Source: Escherichia coli
GTDB taxonomy: Bacteria; Pseudomonadota; Gammaproteobacteria; Enterobacterales; Enterobacteriaceae
Length of the DNA: 64,000 nt
Assembly: GCF_036507355.1 (NCBI RefSeq)
Contig: NZ_AP027877.1
Strand: one strand, 5' to 3'
Shown: positions 7,206 to 15,341 of the stretch, one piece after another
Layout of the letters: each line of letters starts with the position of its first letter
Numbering within the stretch: position 1 is the stretch's first letter
Made by a program: the position numbers and the translations under genes
The notes under the pieces: generated by a model
Told to the model about the DNA's origin: nothing
Database searches by the model: none
Seen by the model: only the letters and a program-made list of their open reading frames with translations

Positions 7206-7552
7206 CACACACCCCACACCACAACGAATCCATAAATCACGTAAACCACCAGTGCAACGACAATCACCAGTTGCAGCATCAGGCGCAAGGCCAGCGGTTT
7301 AACGTAGTCGGTCAACACCTGCCACATGCCGATCCAGGCATGGATCAAGATAGAAAACAGCGCCAGCAGGGTGAACACTTTGGTGAACGCAGAGGCGAAG
7401 AAACCGATCCAGACTTCATATGTCAGTTCGCCACTGGTAGCGAAAAAACCGACCATATAAATGATGTAGAGCGTCAGGACGATAGCGGTAGCGCGAACGA
7501 GGATGAAATCATGTACGCCATTGCGTCCTAATGCGGAGGCGTTGCTTACCAT
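7205..7552 (-). CDS. sdhD: Succinate dehydrogenase hydrophobic membrane anchor subunit
   Basis: 115-aa [40 protein letters not shown]...; its stop overlaps the sdhA start by 1 nt (TGATG). Confidence 0.95.
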
Positions 7553-7935
7553 ACGAGGACTCCTGCGAGAAGTGAAAGCACGACAGTAATAACAAAGGAG
7601 ATTTTGGCGGAGCGTTTACCCGCTTCGAATGTTTCTTCCAGATAGCCAAAATCCATCATCATGTGGCGAATACCTACGACGACGTGATACGCCAGAGCGG
7701 TAAGGATGCCCCACATGATAAATTTGACGAAGAAGCTGCCCATAATCGCGGAAGCTTGCTCGAAACCTTCAGGGGAAGAGAGGCTGGTACCCAGAAGCCA
7801 CAGCAGGATGCCCACTGCAACAAAGGTGATCACACCGGAAACGCGATGGAGAATGGACGCTATCGCCGTGATGGGGAACCGGATGGTCTGTAGGTCCAGA
7901 TTAACAGGTCTTTGTTTTTTCACATTTCTTATCAT
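7546..7935 (-). CDS. sdhC: Succinate dehydrogenase cytochrome b556 subunit
   Basis: Track ORF extends to 7950 ([10 protein letters not shown]...); start placed at [34 protein letters not shown], giving 129 aa. Confidence 0.92.
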
Positions 7936-8643
7936 GAATAACGCCCACATGCTGTTCTTATTATTCCCTGGGGACTACGGGCACAGAGGTTAACTTTCTG
8001 TTACCTGGAGACGTCGGGATTTCCTTCCTCCGGTCTGCTTGCGGGTCAGACAGCGTCCTTTCTATAACTGCGCGTCATGCAAAACACTGCTTCCAGATGC
8101 GAAAACGACACGTTACAACGCTGGGTGGCTCGGGATTGCAGGGTGTTCCGGAGACCTGGCGGCAGTATAGGCTGTTCACAAAATCATTACAATTAACCTA
8201 CATATAGTTTGTCGGGTTTTATCCTGAACAGTGATCCAGGTCACGATAACAACATTTATTTAATTTTTAATCATCTAATTTGACAATCATTCAACAAAGT
8301 TGTTACAAACATTACCAGGAAAAGCATATAATGCGTAAAAGTTATGAAGTCGGTATTTCACCTAAGATTAACTTATGTAACAGTGTGGAAGTATTGACCA
8401 ATTCATTCGGGACAGTTATTAGTGGTAGACAAGTTTAATAATTCGGATTGCTAAGTACTTGATTCGCCATTTATTCGTCATCAATGGATCCTTTACCTGC
8501 AAGCGCCCAGAGCTCTGTACCCAGGTTTTCCCCTCTTTCACAGAGTGGCGAGCCAAATAACAAACGGGTAAAGCCAGGTTGATGTGCGAAGGCAAATTTA
8601 AGTTCCGGCAGTCTTACGCAATAAGGCGCTAAGGAGACCTTAA
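7936..8643. promoter_or_regulatory. Divergent gltA / sdhCDAB promoter-regulatory region (about 700 bp, AT-rich)
   Basis: Long non-coding, AT-rich spacer between divergently oriented gltA (+) and sdhC (-). Established knowledge places multiple promoters and global-regulator sites here; individual sites were not mapped. Confidence 0.6.
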
Positions 8644-9927
8644 ATGGCTGATACAAAAGCAAAACTCACCCTCAACGGGGACACAGCTGTTGAACTGGAT
8701 GTGCTGAAAGGCACGCTGGGTCAAGATGTTATTGATATCCGTACTCTCGGTTCAAAAGGTGTGTTCACCTTTGACCCAGGCTTCACTTCAACCGCATCCT
8801 GCGAATCTAAAATTACTTTTATTGATGGTGATGAAGGTATTTTGCTGCACCGCGGTTTCCCGATCGATCAGCTGGCGACCGATTCTAACTACCTGGAAGT
8901 TTGTTACATCCTGCTGAATGGTGAAAAACCGACTCAGGAACAGTATGACGAATTTAAAACTACGGTGACCCGTCATACCATGATCCACGAGCAGATTACC
9001 CGTCTGTTCCACGCTTTCCGTCGCGACTCACATCCAATGGCAGTCATGTGTGGTATTACCGGCGCGCTGGCGGCGTTCTATCACGACTCGCTGGATGTTA
9101 ACAATCCTCGTCACCGTGAAATTGCCGCGTTCCGCCTGCTGTCGAAAATGCCGACCATGGCAGCGATGTGTTACAAGTATTCCATTGGTCAGCCATTTGT
9201 TTATCCGCGCAACGATCTCTCCTATGCCGGTAACTTCCTGAATATGATGTTCTCCACGCCGTGCGAACCGTATGAAGTTAATCCGATTCTGGAACGTGCT
9301 ATGGACCGTATTCTGATCCTGCACGCTGACCATGAACAGAACGCCTCTACCTCCACCGTGCGTACCGCTGGCTCTTCGGGTGCGAACCCGTTTGCCTGTA
9401 TCGCAGCAGGTATTGCTTCACTGTGGGGACCTGCGCACGGTGGTGCTAACGAAGCGGCGCTGAAAATGCTGGAAGAAATCAGCTCCGTTAAACACATTCC
9501 GGAATTTGTTCGTCGTGCGAAAGATAAAAATGATTCTTTCCGCCTGATGGGCTTCGGTCACCGCGTGTACAAAAATTACGACCCGCGCGCCACCGTAATG
9601 CGTGAAACCTGCCATGAAGTTCTGAAAGAGCTGGGCACCAAAGATGACCTGCTGGAAGTGGCTATGGAGCTGGAAAACATCGCGCTGAACGACCCGTACT
9701 TTATCGAGAAGAAACTGTACCCGAACGTCGATTTCTACTCTGGTATCATCCTGAAAGCGATGGGTATTCCGTCTTCCATGTTCACCGTCATTTTCGCAAT
9801 GGCACGTACCGTTGGCTGGATCGCCCACTGGAGCGAAATGCACAGTGACGGCATGAAGATCGCCCGTCCGCGCCAGTTGTACACCGGCTATGAAAAACGA
9901 GACTTTAAATCAGATGTTAAACATTAA
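8644..9927 (+). CDS. gltA: Citrate synthase
   Basis: 427-aa [50 protein letters not shown]...; full-length type II citrate synthase. Confidence 0.97.
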
Positions 9928-9954
9928 TTATCTGATTTGAACCATATATCGTTT

Positions 9955-9986
9955 AGCCCGCCTGAATATCTGGCGGGCTTTTTTTT
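9955..9986 (+). terminator. Rho-independent terminator downstream of gltA
   Basis: agcccgcc-tgaatatct-ggcgggct stem-loop followed by a T8 run, about 28 bp after the gltA stop. Confidence 0.75.
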
Positions 9987-10313
9987 GTTCGTTAGTTATG
10001 TCTATCGACAAAAAAACGTAATCGGACACAAATACATAATTACACGTTACAAGAATACATATCCGATAACTAAATAAAATCCTAATTTTTCATTCACCAC
10101 CACCGTTATCCCGCCAATCGATGTAGAATACATTGGGTAGCACCCACAATTAAATAAACTCGTAATAGGATTAATTCACTTTATTTATGATTCGAGAGCT
10201 TTGAGAAACTCTCAAACATAATGTAGCAACATTAATATTATTACATGAGCAAAAAACCACTATTCTGTCGGAATAATTAGTATACTTTATCATAGCCCAT
10301 GAAGGATTCATGT

Positions 10314-10880
10314 ATGTTTAAAGGACAAAAAACACTGGCCGCCCTGGCCATATCTCTACTATTCGCTTCACCTGTTTTTGCTGCAGATGAAGGATCTGGT
10401 GAAATCCACTTTAAAGGTGAAGTTATTGAAGCACCTTGTGAAATTCACCCTGATGACCTTGATATGAACATTGACCTGGGTGAAGTAACCACATCCCACA
10501 TAAATCGAGAACATCATAGCGAGAAAAAACCTGTCAATATTCGCTTAATCAACTGTGATATTGCAGACTGGGATGATGGCAACGGTGGCGTGGTCTCAAA
10601 GGTAGGCGTGACCTTCGACAGCACAGCTAAAACGACAGGTGCAACGCCGCTCCTTAGTAACATCAGTGCTGGCGAGGCTACCGGCGTTGGCGTACGTCTC
10701 ATGAACAAAGATGAATCATTTGTTGTATTGGGAACAGAAGCGCCAACAATTGACTTATTGGCAAGTTCAACAGAACAAACGTTAAACTTCTTTGCCTGGA
10801 TGGAACAGATGGATAACGCAGTTTCGGTTACCGCGGGGGCCGTTACTGCTAACGCAACTTACGTTCTGGATTACCAATAA
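10314..10880 (+). CDS. ybgD: Fimbrial subunit (type 1 / chaperone-usher family)
   Basis: Track ORF 10299..10880; start chosen at MFKGQKTLAALAISLLFASPVFA (signal peptide) giving 188 aa; C-terminal ...ANATYVLDYQ typical of fimbrial subunits. Confidence 0.85.
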   Translation: MFKGQKTLAALAISLLFASPVFAADEGSGEIHFKGEVIEAPCEIHPDDLDMNIDLGEVTTSHINREHHSEKKPVNIRLINCDIADWDDGNGGVVSKVGVTFDSTAKTTGATPLLSNISAGEATGVGVRLMNKDESFVVLGTEAPTIDLLASSTEQTLNFFAWMEQMDNAVSVTAGAVTANATYVLDYQ

Positions 10881-10888
10881 TCCTTTTT

Positions 10889-10914
10889 AAGGCGGCTGAT
10901 TAGCCGCCTTTTGC
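10889..10914 (+). terminator. Possible intra-operon attenuator hairpin between fimbrial subunit and usher genes
   Basis: aaggcggct-gatt-agccgcctt stem followed by a short T run (tttt). Confidence 0.45.
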
Positions 10915-10929
10915 GAATATTGTTCAGGT

Positions 10930-13389
10930 ATGGATGCCGTGAATATTTATCGACTCTCTGTTCTTTCCTGTCTGGCAATGGTAACCCCTCCTGCGCTGGC
11001 AGCTGAATTTAACCTTAACGTTCTCGATAAGTCGATTCGGGATAGCGTTGATATTTCGTTGCTCAATCAAAAAGGCGTCGTAGCTCCCGGCGATTACTTT
11101 GTTAGTGTTACGGTTAATAATAATAAAATCAGTAATGGGCAACAAATTCGCTGGCAAAAATCTGGCGATAAAATTATTCCTTGTATCAATGAATCGCTGA
11201 TCGAACTCTTCGGACTTAAATCCGACTTTCGTAAAAAATTACCGGCAATAAAAGAATGTGTCGATTTTAGTGTCTTCCCTAAAATCATCTTTACTTTCGA
11301 TCAGGCAAATCAACAGCTCAATATTACAATCCCGCAGGCATGGCTGGCGTGGCATTCAGAAAACTGGACGCCACCCTCAACGTGGAATAACGGTATTCCT
11401 GGCTTCCTGATGGATTACAACCTGTTTGCCAGCACTTATCGCCCACAAAGCGGCAGCAGCAGCAACAACCTGAACGCCTATGGCACCACGGGCCTCAACG
11501 CCGGGGCATGGCGTCTGCGCAGCGATTATCAGCTTAGCCAGTCCGATAGCGGCGACAACCGTGAACAATCCGGGGCGATTTCACGGACCTACCTGTTCCG
11601 CCCGTTACCGCAAATAGGTTCCCGATTAACCCTGGGCGAAACCGATTTTAGCTCTAACATTTTTGATGGTTTCTCCTATACCGGTGCGGCGTTAGCCAGC
11701 GACGATCGAATGCTCCCCTGGGAGTTACGCGGCTACGCGCCGCAAATCAGCGGCATCGCACAGACTAACGCCACGGTCACGATAAGCCATTCTGGTCGCG
11801 TGATTTACCAGAAAAAAGTTCCGCCAGGCCCATTTATTATTGATGACCTGAATCAGTCAGTGCAAGGTACACTGGATGTCAAAGTGAGCGAAGAAGATGG
11901 ACGGGGGAATAACTTCCAGGTTTCAGCGGCCTCTACCCCGTTCCTGACGCGTCAGGGCCAGGTGCGCTATAAACTGGCTGCCGGTCGCCCGCGTTCCTCT
12001 ATGTCGCACCACACCGAGGATGAAACCTTCATTAGCCATGAAGTCTCCTGGGGGATGCTCTCCAACACTTCACTATATGGCGGCATGCTTCTCGCAGGCG
12101 ATGACTATCGTTCCGGCGCGCTGGGTATTGGGAAAAATATGCTCTGGCTGGGGGCGCTGTCGTTTGACGTGACCTGGGCCGACAGCCATTTTGATACTCA
12201 ACAGGATGAGCAGGGTTACAGCTACCGCTTTAACTACAGCAAACAGGTTGATGCGACCAACAGCACCATCTCATTGGCAGCCTATCGCTTCTCCGATCGC
12301 CATTTTCACAGCTACGCTAACTACATTGATCACAAATACAATGACGCCGACGCGCAGGATGAAAAGCAAACCATCAGCCTCTCCTTCGGTCAGCCTATTA
12401 CTCCGCTGAATCTTAATCTCTACGCCAACATCCTGCATCAGAGCTGGTGGAATGCGGATACCTCCACCACGGCCAACATTACCGTCGGTTTTAACGTCGA
12501 CATTGGCGACTGGAAAGATATTTCTGTCTCGACCTCGTTCAACACCACCCATTATGAAGATAAAGATCGCGACAACCAGATTTACTTTTCGATCTCCTTA
12601 CCGATTGGGGAAAGTGGTCGACTGGGTTATGACATGCAGAACAACAGTAATACTACCACCCACCGCATGTCGTGGAACGATACCCTGGATGAACGAAACA
12701 GTTGGGGAATGTCGGCTGGAATACAATCCGATCGCCCGGATAACGGTGCGCAGGTCAGCGGCAATTACCAACACCTCAGTTCGGCGGGGGAATGGGATCT
12801 GACCGGAACCTATGCCGCCAATGATTACACTTCCGCCAGTGCCAGTTGGAGCGGCTCGTTTACCGCGACTCAACATGGCGCGGCATTCCATCGCCGCAGT
12901 TCCACCAATGAACCACGCCTGATGGTCAGCACCGACGGCGTGGGCGATATTCCGATTCAGGGCAATATTGACTACACCAACCGCTTTGGTATTACCGTGG
13001 TACCGTTTGTTTCCAGCTACCAGCCTACGACGGTGGCGGTCAATATGAACGACTTGCCTGACGGCGTTACCGTTTCCGAAAACGTGGTGAAAGAAACCTG
13101 GACCGAAGGCGCCATCGGCTTTAAATCGCTGGCGTCCCGCGCCGGGAAAGATCTCAACGTCATTATCAGCGATGCTAACGGGCATTTCCCGCCGCTCGGT
13201 GCCGATGTTCGCCAGGCTGAAGGCGGTGTCAGCGTCGGGATGGTTGGCGAAAACGGTCACGCATGGCTGAGTGGGGTCGATGAAAATCAACAATTTACCG
13301 TGCACTGGGGCGACCAGAAAACGTGTGCCATTCATCTGCCGGAACATCTGGAAGATGTGACTAAGCGCCTGATTTTACCCTGTCATTAA
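10930..13389 (+). CDS. ybgQ: Outer-membrane fimbrial usher protein
   Basis: 819-aa ORF with N-terminal signal peptide and usher-sized beta-barrel protein; sits between the subunit and chaperone genes. Confidence 0.9.
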   Translation: MDAVNIYRLSVLSCLAMVTPPALAAEFNLNVLDKSIRDSVDISLLNQKGVVAPGDYFVSVTVNNNKISNGQQIRWQKSGDKIIPCINESLIELFGLKSDFRKKLPAIKECVDFSVFPKIIFTFDQANQQLNITIPQAWLAWHSENWTPPSTWNNGIPGFLMDYNLFASTYRPQSGSSSNNLNAYGTTGLNAGAWRLRSDYQLSQSDSGDNREQSGAISRTYLFRPLPQIGSRLTLGETDFSSNIFDGFSYTGAALASDDRMLPWELRGYAPQISGIAQTNATVTISHSGRVIYQKKVPPGPFIIDDLNQSVQGTLDVKVSEEDGRGNNFQVSAASTPFLTRQGQVRYKLAAGRPRSSMSHHTEDETFISHEVSWGMLSNTSLYGGMLLAGDDYRSGALGIGKNMLWLGALSFDVTWADSHFDTQQDEQGYSYRFNYSKQVDATNSTISLAAYRFSDRHFHSYANYIDHKYNDADAQDEKQTISLSFGQPITPLNLNLYANILHQSWWNADTSTTANITVGFNVDIGDWKDISVSTSFNTTHYEDKDRDNQIYFSISLPIGESGRLGYDMQNNSNTTTHRMSWNDTLDERNSWGMSAGIQSDRPDNGAQVSGNYQHLSSAGEWDLTGTYAANDYTSASASWSGSFTATQHGAAFHRRSSTNEPRLMVSTDGVGDIPIQGNIDYTNRFGITVVPFVSSYQPTTVAVNMNDLPDGVTVSENVVKETWTEGAIGFKSLASRAGKDLNVIISDANGHFPPLGADVRQAEGGVSVGMVGENGHAWLSGVDENQQFTVHWGDQKTCAIHLPEHLEDVTKRLILPCH

Positions 13390-13403
13390 TTAAGGAAAAG
13401 ACG

Positions 13404-14135
13404 ATGACATTTGTTAAAGGATTCCCTTTGATTCTTCTGGTTGCCAGTATGTGCAGCCACGGCGCAGTGCAGCCTGACCGCACGCGCATCATCTTTAATA
13501 GCAAAGATAAAGCAACCAGCCTGCGCGTGGAAAACCGCAGCGATAAACTCCCCTACCTCGCCTATTCATGGATAGAAAATGAAAAGGGAGAGAAAAGCGA
13601 TGAATTTCTCGTCGCCCTGCCGCCTATCCAGCGACTGGAGCCAAAAGCGACTTCGCAGGTTCGGATCATGAAACAAGCCGCCACCGCGAAATTACCCACC
13701 GATCGCGAATCTCTCTTTTACTATAACCTGCGTGAAATTCCGCCTGTCCCGGAAGGCAGCGAGGGCCATGCGATCCTGCAAGTCGCCGTCCAAAGTCGCA
13801 TTAAGCTATTCTGGCGGCCCGCCGCATTACGCAAAAAAATGGGCGATCATGTTGAGCAACAGCTACAGGTTAGCCAGCAGAATAACCAGCTTACCCTGAA
13901 AAACCCGACCGGATACTATCTGACTATTGCCTATCTTGGGCGGGATGAGAAAGGCGTGCTGCCTGGCTTTAAAAGCACGATGGTCGCACCGTTCAGTTCG
14001 GTCACCACCAGCACGGGCAGCTATAGCGGCAAGCAGTTTTATATTGGCTACATGGACGACTACGGCGCATTGCGTATGAACACGCTCTCCTGCCAGCGGC
14101 AATGCCGCCTGCAGCCGGTGGAGAATAAAAAATGA
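13404..14135 (+). CDS. ybgP: Periplasmic fimbrial chaperone (PapD-like)
   Basis: 243-aa [65 protein letters not shown]...; chaperone family pattern. Confidence 0.9.
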
Positions 14136-15193
14136 GATTCGCCAAAGGCGTGTTGCTCGCCATCTGTCTGATTTTTTTGCCGCTAAAAGCGGCGCTGGCG
14201 CTGAACTGCTATTTTGGTACCACAAACGGTGCTGTAGAAAAATCGGAAGCTATTATGCCCTTCGCCGTTCCGGCCAATTCCAAACCCGGCGATAAAATCT
14301 GGGAATCTGACGATATAAAAATTCCGGTCTACTGTGACAACAACACAAACGGTAATTTTGAAAGCGAGCACGTCTACGCCTGGGTAAACCCTTACCCCGG
14401 TATTCAGGATCCCTATTATCAATTGGGCGTAACCTATGAAGGCGTGGACTATGACGCAAGCCTTGGGAAAAGCCGCATCGACACGAATCAGTGCATCGAC
14501 AGTAAGAATATTGATATTTACACCCCGGAGCAGATCATTGCGATGGGCTGGCAAAATAAACTTTGCTCCGGCGATCCAACCGTTATGCACAAATCGCGGA
14601 CGTTTGTGGCGCGTATGCGGCTTTACGTTAAAGTTCGCGCCATGCCGCCCCATGATTATCAGAGCAAACTCAGCGATTACATCGTCGTACAGTTTGATGG
14701 CGCAGGCAGCGTGAACGAAGACCCTACCGCGAAGAGTCTGAAATATCACATTACCGGTCTGGAAAATATCCGCGTGCTGGATTGCAGCGTCAACTTTGCT
14801 ATCTCACCTGAAACCCAGGTCGTTGATTTTGGCCGATTTAACGTGCTGGATATTCGTCGCCATACGATGTCGCAGCAATTTAAAATAACTACAACCAAAT
14901 CACAAAACGACCAGTGTACCGACGGTTTTAAAGTCAGCTCTTCGTTTTATACCGATGAAACCCTTATCGACGAAGATAAATCACTGCTCATTGGCAATGG
15001 CCTGAAGCTTCGATTGTTGGATGAAAATGCCTCACCCTATACTTTCAACAAATACAGTGAATATGCCGATTTTACCAGCGACCTGTTAGTGTATGAAAAA
15101 ACCTACACGGCAGAATTGTCATCCACGCCGGGTACGCCCATCGACGTTGGTCCCTTTGATACAGTGGTACTTTTCAAAATTAACTACAACTGA
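14132..15193 (+). CDS. ybgO: Fimbrial adhesin-like protein (putative tip adhesin)
   Basis: 353-aa ORF with signal peptide ([23 protein letters not shown]); start overlaps the chaperone stop (ATGA); last gene of the chaperone-usher cluster. Confidence 0.85.
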
Positions 15194-15341
15194 TTTAGCC
15201 TATTGCCCTTTCCAGCCGGAGAGGGCTTCTTCGGTTAATTGCCAATTTTCCGGCTTTTATTGATTACCGTTATTTTTTCCATGCCCGGCATTCTTTATGC
15301 TGTATCGATACACCAAAGAGTAAATAATGAGGGAGCAAAGG

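Follow-up and report, generated by a model that had tools for sequence, protein, structure and literature searches.

The analysed stretch of Escherichia coli DNA (64,000 nucleotides, referred to as the window) carries at positions 10314-15193 the E. coli ybgDQPO operon for the Ybg fimbriae, an operon that is already catalogued, in its O157:H7-type allele. Genes for a pilin, an usher, a chaperone and an adhesin follow in this order on the + strand, directly 3' of gltA (citrate synthase; 8644-9927, + strand) and of the intrinsic gltA terminator (AGCCCGCC-loop-GGCGGGCT followed by eight T; 9955-9987, + strand; -17.3 kcal/mol). The location between gltA and abrB and the gene order D-Q-P-O are those of the Ybg fimbriae, and loci 99.7% identical to the window carry the annotations fimbrial protein, usher, chaperone, ybgO and abrB. 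Four co-oriented fimbrial genes behind the gltA terminator had been recognised in the first-pass annotation, and domain matches as well as synteny with K-12 agree with that description.

The first gene, ybgD (10314-10880, + strand), encodes a pilin of 188 aa, presumably the major subunit, with a signal-peptide-like N-terminus and a match to PF00419 (Fimbrial; E = 1e-28, residues 36-193). The start originally proposed for it, 10299, lies 15 nt too far upstream. The correct start is the ATG at 10314, which is preceded at a distance of 7 nt by an AAGGA Shine-Dalgarno sequence (10302-10306), matches the RefSeq start and opens an N-terminus (MFKGQKT) that is kept in all alleles. The second gene, ybgQ (10930-13389, + strand), encodes the outer-membrane usher with the domains PapC_N, Usher and PapC_C (E = 1e-181, 5e-35 and 7e-14, respectively, all exceeding the Pfam cut-offs); its start is ambiguous between ATG 10930 (PGAP) and GTG 10939, the equivalent of the curated K-12 start. 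It is followed by ybgP (13404-14135, + strand), encoding a PapD-like periplasmic chaperone (PapD_N, E = 4e-36; PapD_C, E = 1.5e-13), and by ybgO (14132-15193, + strand; 353 aa), the start of which overlaps the ybgP stop codon (ATGA). Residues 24-222 of YbgO align with 9RX0/9RWW (E = 1e-119), in which this domain of another YbgO allele was solved on its own, and residues 218-353 show a weak Fimbrial (pilin) match under the Pfam cut-off (E = 5e-4). Judged from these alignments, YbgO has the predicted architecture of a two-domain tip adhesin, with an N-terminal putative receptor-binding domain and a C-terminal pilin domain. A paper describing the lectin-domain structures 9RX0/9RWW was not found in the literature searched.

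Divergence of the ybg alleles and the upstream region

The K-12 operon (ybgDQPO, b0719-b0716) has its locus, gene order, protein lengths, AT-rich upstream region and the core of the hairpin described below in common with the window; it differs by deep divergence of the allele, with dS values of 1.6-2.1 and a promoter region that is not alignable. Amino-acid identities to K-12 over the full length are 80% for YbgD, 83% for YbgQ, 79% for YbgP and 88% for YbgO, whereas the flanking genes are 98-99.5% identical, the final ~50 nt of gltA already belonging to the diverged allelic block. The allele of the window occurs in O157:H7, in O145 and in 411 of 5426 complete genomes. Between alleles, at saturated synonymous divergence, all four ybg genes show dN/dS ratios of 0.04-0.08, and the operon as a whole is an allelic cassette of ancient origin, subject to purifying selection. 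Such strong purifying selection on four genes across deeply diverged alleles speaks for a use of the cryptic operon somewhere in nature, and we regard it as a more interesting lead than the hairpin. As a separate observation, one ybg allele also occurs in a non-coli Escherichia species, with an identity higher than that of the flanking core genes.

The gltA-ybgD intergenic region (9988-10313, + strand) presumably contains the promoter and the 5' UTR. Its AT-richness, pointed out in the first-pass annotation, is evident from a GC content of 31.8% in 9990-10300 compared to 52.4% for the whole window, the K-12 allele having 29%. A consensus scan of the + strand from 9990 to 10313 gave no promoter. 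The literature characterises the Ybg operon as core-associated, cryptic and regulated by H-NS. For the K-12 allele, this includes Wurpel 2013, citing Korea 2010 (PMC3559732); the ybgD promoter carries an HNS flag in Shimada 2014 (PMC3946193), and a list of H-NS-regulated genes includes ybgQ (PMC12455589). The proposal of a cryptic, H-NS-silenced operon consequently holds for the K-12 allele by the literature. In the window, the upstream sequence is not homologous to that of K-12 (~50% identity), and targeting of 9988-10313 by H-NS is presumed in this allele. Ybg fimbriae raise the adherence to bladder cells, according to Korea et al. 2010 as cited in PMC6033998. Both the catalogued operon and its published silence and H-NS control give the present locus little weight as a discovery. 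The adherence effect seen by Korea and coworkers was reportedly obtained with an upstream constitutive promoter driving the ybg operon.

The hairpin between ybgD and ybgQ

A stem-loop had been postulated between the subunit and usher genes and is indeed present, its exact position being 10889-10910 on the + strand. This intercistronic hairpin, AAGGCGGCT-GATT-AGCCGCCTT, is conserved and folds stably. It consists of a 5' arm (10889-10897), the GATT loop (10898-10901) and a 3' arm (10902-10910) with a T run at 10909-10912, begins 8 nt past the ybgD stop codon and is separated from the usher ATG by 19 nt. The GC-rich stem of 9 bp is built from a 6-bp all-GC core, GGCGGC (10891-10896) pairing with GCCGCC (10903-10908), plus U-A pairs. 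The calculated energy in the window is -15.6 kcal/mol (z = -4.6), none of 200 shuffles folding equally well, and across all alleles the values range from -13 to -17 kcal/mol with z from -2.9 to -5.2. Perfect hairpins of at least 9 bp number 11 in the 64-kb window compared to 1.5 expected under a first-order Markov model. The ybgD-ybgQ hairpin is not a chance feature. It is unique within the window and occurs at a median of one place per genome; being single-copy, it is neither REP/BIME nor another dispersed repeat. Rfam yielded no family at threshold for the hairpin, weak matches falling on the gltA terminator, and no published description of it was found in the literature searched.

That hairpins commonly follow the subunit gene in fimbrial operons, another statement of the first-pass annotation, was confirmed in K-12. 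Of seven other chaperone-usher operons checked, six have a hairpin there; that at fimA is weaker, the remaining five are strong, and yehD-yehC has none. The hairpins of yadN, sfmA, elfA, yfcV, yraH and fimA are like that of ybg in position and type, and their operons belong to the same cryptic, H-NS-repressed class. They amount to roughly -15 to -25 kcal/mol and are located in spacers of 64-219 nt, the ybg spacer with its 49 nt being the shortest among those bearing a hairpin. Sequence similarity between them is lacking, and several (e.g., yraH and elfA) have longer stems and better U-tracts. The ybg hairpin is a previously uncharacterised, ordinary instance of a well-known design of fimbrial operons, by which much pilin and little usher are obtained from one promoter.

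Seven Escherichia genome alleles, from E. coli and E. whittamii, all have the sequence GGCGGC...GCCGCC followed by TTT, and it is equally unchanged in the 10 junction variants seen on 46 metagenome contigs. Only seven loci were obtained when the genome collection was scanned for orthologues; of the 52 contigs that matched the pattern in metagenomes, 48 contained ybg junctions and four were chance matches without fimbrial genes. Despite the dS of 1.6-2.1 the core stem did not change among Escherichia alleles, whereas the loop varies freely, as do the 10 nt upstream. The Ybg family is essentially confined to Escherichia, Superficieibacter and Nissabacter, and a 9-bp hairpin was detected at the same place in Ybg-like operons of E. 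albertii, two Superficieibacter species and Nissabacter. In these distant relatives compensatory changes are found, one C-G pair being replaced by U-A and the stem of Nissabacter being wholly different, and the loop ranges from 3 to 6 nt among all versions. Covariation within the E. coli alleles alone was not significant (score reached by 75 of 500 shuffles), as the six core pairs never vary, and gained modest support when the distant members were added (12 of 500).

As the core stem is invariant in Escherichia, sequence-specific recognition is conceivable. As a palindrome, GGCGGC-N6-GCCGCC would fit the site of a DNA-binding protein that acts as a dimer, but the hairpin of Nissabacter is unrelated in sequence, which favours structure over a sequence motif; moreover, a loop varying from 3 to 6 nt would shift the spacing of the half-sites, and the motif has no further copies in the window. 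Alternatively, the inverted repeat might control translation of the usher. The adjacent ybgQ initiation region (10913-10960, + strand; AGG 10926-10928, ATG 10930, GTG 10939) is unusually conserved, with 83% invariant columns between alleles versus about 50% elsewhere, and is predicted to fold into a weak hairpin over the Shine-Dalgarno sequence and the AUG with GGA in the loop. We consider it very improbable that the repeat serves either of these functions instead of 3'-end formation.

The invariance of the ybg stem in sequence, beyond structure, might also be expected of a regulatory small RNA originating from the 3' UTR of ybgD or from the spacer. An analogue would be FimR2: the fim operon of K-12 has the ncRNA fimR2 annotated in precisely the corresponding place, the fimA-fimI spacer, and FimR2 thus likewise represents a structured RNA after the major pilin gene; FimR2 is processed by RNase E (PMC9723502). 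Nevertheless, the ybg hairpin has no sequence similarity to fimR2 and no Rfam match, a stable RNA from the ybg spacer would have to be postulated, conservation is lowest in the single-stranded parts that could serve as seed (loop and 5' flank), and the ybg operon is normally silent. A regulatory RNA with the hairpin as its core therefore appears hardly likely.

Possible roles of the hairpin in expression of the operon

We think it rather probable that the hairpin is a selected cis-acting RNA element which functions as a leaky terminator and as an exonuclease block, with ybgQPO being expressed by read-through. Transcription of the operon would start in the AT-rich, presumably H-NS-targeted region past the gltA terminator, and the hairpin would form or protect a 3' end of the ybgD mRNA, the pilin message thereby exceeding those for usher, chaperone and adhesin. 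In the E. coli alleles, the hairpin is most likely a leaky intrinsic terminator, with a GC stem of 6-9 bp and only 3-5 U. It may additionally block 3'-to-5' exonucleases, thereby stabilising the upstream segment, and the ybgQPO transcripts would be supplied by polymerases reading through it. Strong purifying selection on ybgQ, ybgP and ybgO (dN/dS 0.04-0.08) counts as support for read-through. Both the lower levels of the downstream transcripts and the route by which they arise, termination or protection, are what we infer from these features.

The U-tract bears directly on this point. It comprises 3-5 U in the E. coli alleles (in the window four U after the GC stem, then GCGAAUAUU), while E. 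albertii, Superficieibacter and Nissabacter keep the hairpin but lack a U-tract, so that the feature conserved in the family is the hairpin and not a canonical terminator. A simple terminator rule was passed by the BL21 allele, whereas those of the window, K-12 and L010 failed (one out of four). With a U-tract that is short in E. coli and lacking in the other genera, a partial intrinsic terminator is no more than plausible, and a barrier that stabilises the 3' end is an equally good fit. The E. coli supplements on Term-seq of PMC7815308 list neither ybgD nor ybgQ.

It is very unlikely that the hairpin is instead an efficient terminator, rendering ybgD monocistronic and leaving ybgQPO to a separate internal promoter. 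The strong GC stem would be in line with this, as would a weak promoter-like site inside ybgD of the L010 allele and the list of fimbrial genes induced by BolA overproduction, which contains ybgD and no other ybg gene (PMC4337573). However, the U-tract is short, and the distance of 19 nt from the hairpin to the ATG of the usher gene is too small for a promoter. Neither the window allele nor that of BL21 showed a sigma-70-like site within ybgD on the + strand, and transcripts begun there would still have to cross the hairpin. Furthermore, all four ybg genes go up together in RNA-seq transcriptomes of STEC (PMC6033998).

A stronger competitor, to which we nevertheless assign a clearly lower probability than to the leaky terminator with exonuclease block, is a pure RNA-stability element without any termination, causing a differential decay of ybgD like that of papA and CFA/I. 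The transcript would then be terminated by Rho or cleaved by RNase E further downstream, and 3' exonucleases would trim the RNA back to the hairpin, leaving a long-lived ybgD message; this detailed version we rate as possible to the same limited degree. Maintenance of the hairpin without a U-tract in E. albertii, Superficieibacter and Nissabacter argues for it, as does the AU-rich AATATT 3' of the stem, a candidate RNase E site that the Escherichia alleles have in common. Precedents are given in PMC5927463, and the fimA-fimI spacer is also processed by RNase E according to PMC9723502. On the other hand, TTT directly follows the stem in all E. coli and E. whittamii alleles, which a barrier to exonucleases alone would not need, and the BL21 allele satisfies the terminator rule.

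As summarised in PMC5927463, the 3' end of papA mRNA is protected by a terminator structure, and mRNA decay in the CFA/I operon is differential (Baga 1988; Jordi 1993). Like ybg, both pap and CFA/I have a stable hairpin right 3' of the most needed subunit gene and assembly genes downstream that require read-through. They differ in the gene that comes next, a minor pilin or chaperone in pap and CFA/I compared to the usher in ybg. In pap, according to the same paper, cleavage by RNase E and a hairpin at the 5' end are further requirements for the stabilised papA message. Since the stem is invariant across saturated alleles and the hairpin occurs without a U-tract elsewhere, the ybg junction offers a clean natural test case for termination versus 3'-end protection. 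The practical value of the comparative result on the hairpin is modest.

Two further ideas go beyond this, and we regard them as unlikely: the hairpin might be more than a polarity signal, namely the source of a stable, processed FimR2-like regulatory RNA or the recognition site of a specific RNA-binding factor, or the ybg operon might be an ancient polymorphism under balancing selection. If the latter were true, the function of the cryptic Ybg fimbria in its natural habitat would be important and frequency-dependent.

By NCBIfam profile matches, the closest named homologues of the ybg usher and chaperone are those of Salmonella Std/Ste/Stf. The matches are far under the equivalog cut-offs, e.g., 640 bits versus 1289 for StdB, which places Ybg outside these named families. 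The Salmonella Std/Ste/Stf operons share with ybg the uncommon order of usher before chaperone. At the end of the operon, 12 nt past the ybgO stop codon, a second hairpin (GCCCUUUCC-AGCC-GGAGAGGGC; 15205-15226, + strand) is a candidate for a weak operon-end terminator or 3'-end protector, and K-12 has one too.

The ybg operon and its allelic divergence

The ORF list and Pfam scan of the window revealed four closely packed + strand genes downstream of gltA (8644-9927, + strand), encoding a 188-aa pilin (YbgD; PF00419, E 1e-28), an 816-819-aa usher (YbgQ; PapC_N, Usher and PapC_C, E 1e-181), a 243-aa PapD-like chaperone (YbgP) and a 353-aa protein (YbgO), the C-terminal third of which shows weak pilin likeness (E 5e-4). 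The ybgP stop overlaps the ybgO start, and abrB, nei and pxpA follow. Megablast matched the 5.5-kb stretch at 99.7% identity in complete E. coli genomes, where it is annotated as fimbrial protein, usher, chaperone, ybgO and abrB. Since in addition K-12 carries ybgD, ybgQ, ybgP and ybgO (b0719-b0716) at the equivalent position, this is the already known Ybg fimbrial operon; the co-oriented subunit, usher, chaperone and adhesin-like genes reported after gltA by the first-pass annotation were confirmed.

YbgO residues 24-222 (14201-14797) align to the solved stand-alone domains 9RX0/9RWW (E 1e-119, about 88% identical), deposited under the name "Fimbrial protein". An N-terminal domain combined with a pilin-like C-terminal part is the usual architecture of two-domain tip adhesins. 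The PDB entries 9RX0, 9RWW, 9RWU/9RWV and 9RWE each represent an isolated N-terminal domain of a YbgO-like adhesin. Together they look like a recent structural series; no paper describing them came up in the searchable literature.

The operon had been placed at 10299-15193. Fimbrial genes are indeed present there, but the start lies too far upstream, as AAGGA 7 nt upstream, the RefSeq start and the MFKGQKT conserved in all alleles set the pilin ATG at 10314. For ybgQ annotations differ between ATG 10930 (PGAP) and GTG 10939 (equivalent to the curated K-12 start), the latter being better spaced from the AGG at 10926-10928. The ybgQ initiation region with the first ~10 codons (10913-10960) showed 83% invariant columns between alleles compared to about 50% elsewhere, and a weak hairpin with GGA in its loop is predicted as possible over the Shine-Dalgarno sequence and AUG.

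Compared to K-12, the flanks of the operon are 99-100% identical, whereas identity is just 75-80% from about 9880 to about 15300. Flanking genes have a dS of 0.08 (gltA), 0.05 (nei) and 0.15 (abrB); for ybgD, ybgQ, ybgP and ybgO dS is saturated (1.6-2.1), with amino-acid identities of 79-88% and dN/dS of just 0.04-0.08. On this comparison, the whole operon is to be regarded as a deeply diverged allelic cassette. It begins within the final ~50 nt of gltA (GltA ending in KSDVKH rather than KSDIKR) and extends to just upstream of abrB. Complete genomes contain at least three ybgD allele classes: one matching the window at ≥99% identity in 411 genomes, a K-12 type (about 74%) and a BL21 type (about 72%). 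Within 7313-13877, the window and the non-coli Escherichia sp. E1V33 share 98-100% identity in ybg, but just 86-98% in the adjoining sdhC/gltA region, which suggests transfer of the cassette across a species boundary. This deep divergence under purifying selection, together with an allele shared with one non-coli Escherichia species, is the most notable by-product of the analysis.

The hairpin between ybgD and ybgQ

The stem-loop noticed earlier between the subunit and usher genes was located at 10889-10910 (AAGGCGGCU-GAUU-AGCCGCCUU), with a computed folding energy of -15.6 kcal/mol (z -4.6). Perfect stems of at least 9 bp occur at 11 loci in 64 kb versus 1.5 expected, the remaining ones being mostly terminator-like. 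The hairpin is present in one copy per genome and matched no Rfam family. GGCGGC...GCCGCC and the TTT are invariant in seven Escherichia genome alleles and all 10 junction variants (46 metagenome contigs); the loop (six positions) and the 10-nt stretch separating the ybgD stop codon from the stem vary freely, and an extra apical pair, formed in only part of the alleles, is U-A, G-C or A-U. Judged against the saturated synonymous divergence of the four genes, this invariance argues that the hairpin is real and selected. The E. whittamii spacer (L011 1747-1840) contains an extra ~50 nt between ybgD stop codon and hairpin, leaving hairpin and downstream spacer unchanged.

Covariation within the Escherichia coli/whittamii alleles was not significant, as the core never varies. 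A second set additionally included Ybg-like operons of E. albertii, two Superficieibacter species and Nissabacter, which have the same gene order and each carry a 9-bp GC hairpin in the equivalent position. In this set a core C-G pair is replaced by U-A, and Nissabacter has a stem of unrelated sequence. With 81% paired cells, three pairs with double changes and a score reached by only 12 of 500 shuffles, covariation lends modest but consistent support.

Seven other K-12 chaperone-usher operons were compared in the spacer that follows their first pilin gene. As had been expected for fimbrial operons in general, a hairpin directly follows this gene in six of them. Those after yadN, sfmA, elfA, yfcV and yraH are strong; the fimA-fimI spacer (2175-2209 of the fim locus, L072) has a weaker structure annotated as sRNA fimR2, and no hairpin was found in the 34-nt yehD-yehC spacer. 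The ybg operon is one more case of an ordinary post-pilin hairpin.

Possible action of the hairpin

The usher ATG follows the hairpin at a distance of only 19 nt, leaving no room for a promoter, and no sigma-70-like site was found on the + strand inside ybgD of the window and BL21 alleles. Purifying selection on ybgQ, ybgP and ybgO is strong (dN/dS 0.04-0.08). Korea and coworkers reportedly obtained their bladder-cell adherence phenotype with the operon driven from an upstream constitutive promoter. All four ybg genes change together in STEC transcriptomes (PMC6033998), and that article cites Korea et al. 2010 for adherence to bladder cells being raised by Ybg fimbriae. Given these observations, transcription must pass the hairpin, and a complete stop is impossible.

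The U-tract after the hairpin is short (UUUU then GCG in the window, UUUC in K-12, UUUCUUC in BL21), in contrast to the 8 U of the gltA terminator, and only the BL21 allele passed the terminator rule of the tool among the window, BL21, K-12 and L010 alleles. Beyond E. coli and E. whittamii (E. albertii, Superficieibacter, Nissabacter) it is entirely missing. The main rival explanation, a pure RNA-stability element, has published precedents in the RNase-resistant 3′ terminator of the papA message and the differential decay in the CFA/I operon (PMC5927463), by analogy with which the ybg hairpin might act; we consider it rather unlikely. We somewhat favour a combination, in which the 3′ end of the pilin message would be formed or shielded at the hairpin. 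In E. coli, leaky intrinsic termination and a block of 3′ exonucleases would both contribute, and the outcome would be an excess of pilin mRNA over assembly-gene mRNA. The original observation was confirmed with small coordinate corrections and its interpretation is partly supported: the hairpin is a conserved, selected but typical element, with leaky termination or 3′-end protection as candidate mechanisms.

Upstream region, relatives and operon end

The region 9990-10300 is AT-rich as described before (31.8% GC compared to 52.4% for the whole window). The accompanying view of a cryptic, H-NS-silenced operon agrees with the literature on the K-12 allele, but the upstream sequence of the window allele is unrelated apart from its AT-richness. 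Ybg is listed among core-associated fimbriae by Wurpel 2013 (PMC3559732), which refers to Korea 2010 for its cryptic and H-NS-repressed expression (K-12 allele). Shimada 2014 (PMC3946193) gives a constitutive RpoD promoter with HNS flag for K-12 ybgD (TAAACA-16-TAAAAT), which our promoter scan located just downstream of the gltA terminator; ybgQ is listed as H-NS-regulated in a 2025 study (PMC12455589), BolA overproduction induces ybgD (PMC4337573), and an RpoE-dependent promoter is also mentioned. All these reports concern alleles other than that of the window. The gltA-ybgD regions (window 9988-10313; K-12 locus L002 7797-8185) are not alignable (about 50% identity), with spacers of nearly equal length (386 nt in the window, 389 nt in K-12) and both AT-rich (33% and 29% GC, respectively). 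The K-12 promoter has no counterpart in this region of the window allele, and a consensus scan (+ strand, 9990-10313) placed no promoter.

Some lineages show decay of the operon. In strain VG888-46E9 an IS1B-associated deletion has reduced ybgD to 90 nt and ybgO to about 195 nt, E200086 carries IS1A upstream of ybgD, ybgD is frameshifted in CFSAN027343, and about 1240 of 5426 complete genomes gave no ybgD match. The YbgD family is almost restricted to Escherichia, Superficieibacter and Nissabacter. Both Superficieibacter species carry the operon at the gltA locus, as in E. coli. Since the pilin-usher-chaperone-adhesin operons of E. albertii (beside a GntR-family regulator) and Nissabacter sp. 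(beside cheA/cheW) lie at unrelated loci, the cassette has evidently moved between chromosomal sites.

A second conserved hairpin (GCCCUUUCC-AGCC-GGAGAGGGC; 15205-15226, + strand) with a weak U-rich tail lies 12 nt after the ybgO stop and probably marks where the operon ends, ahead of the abrB promoter.
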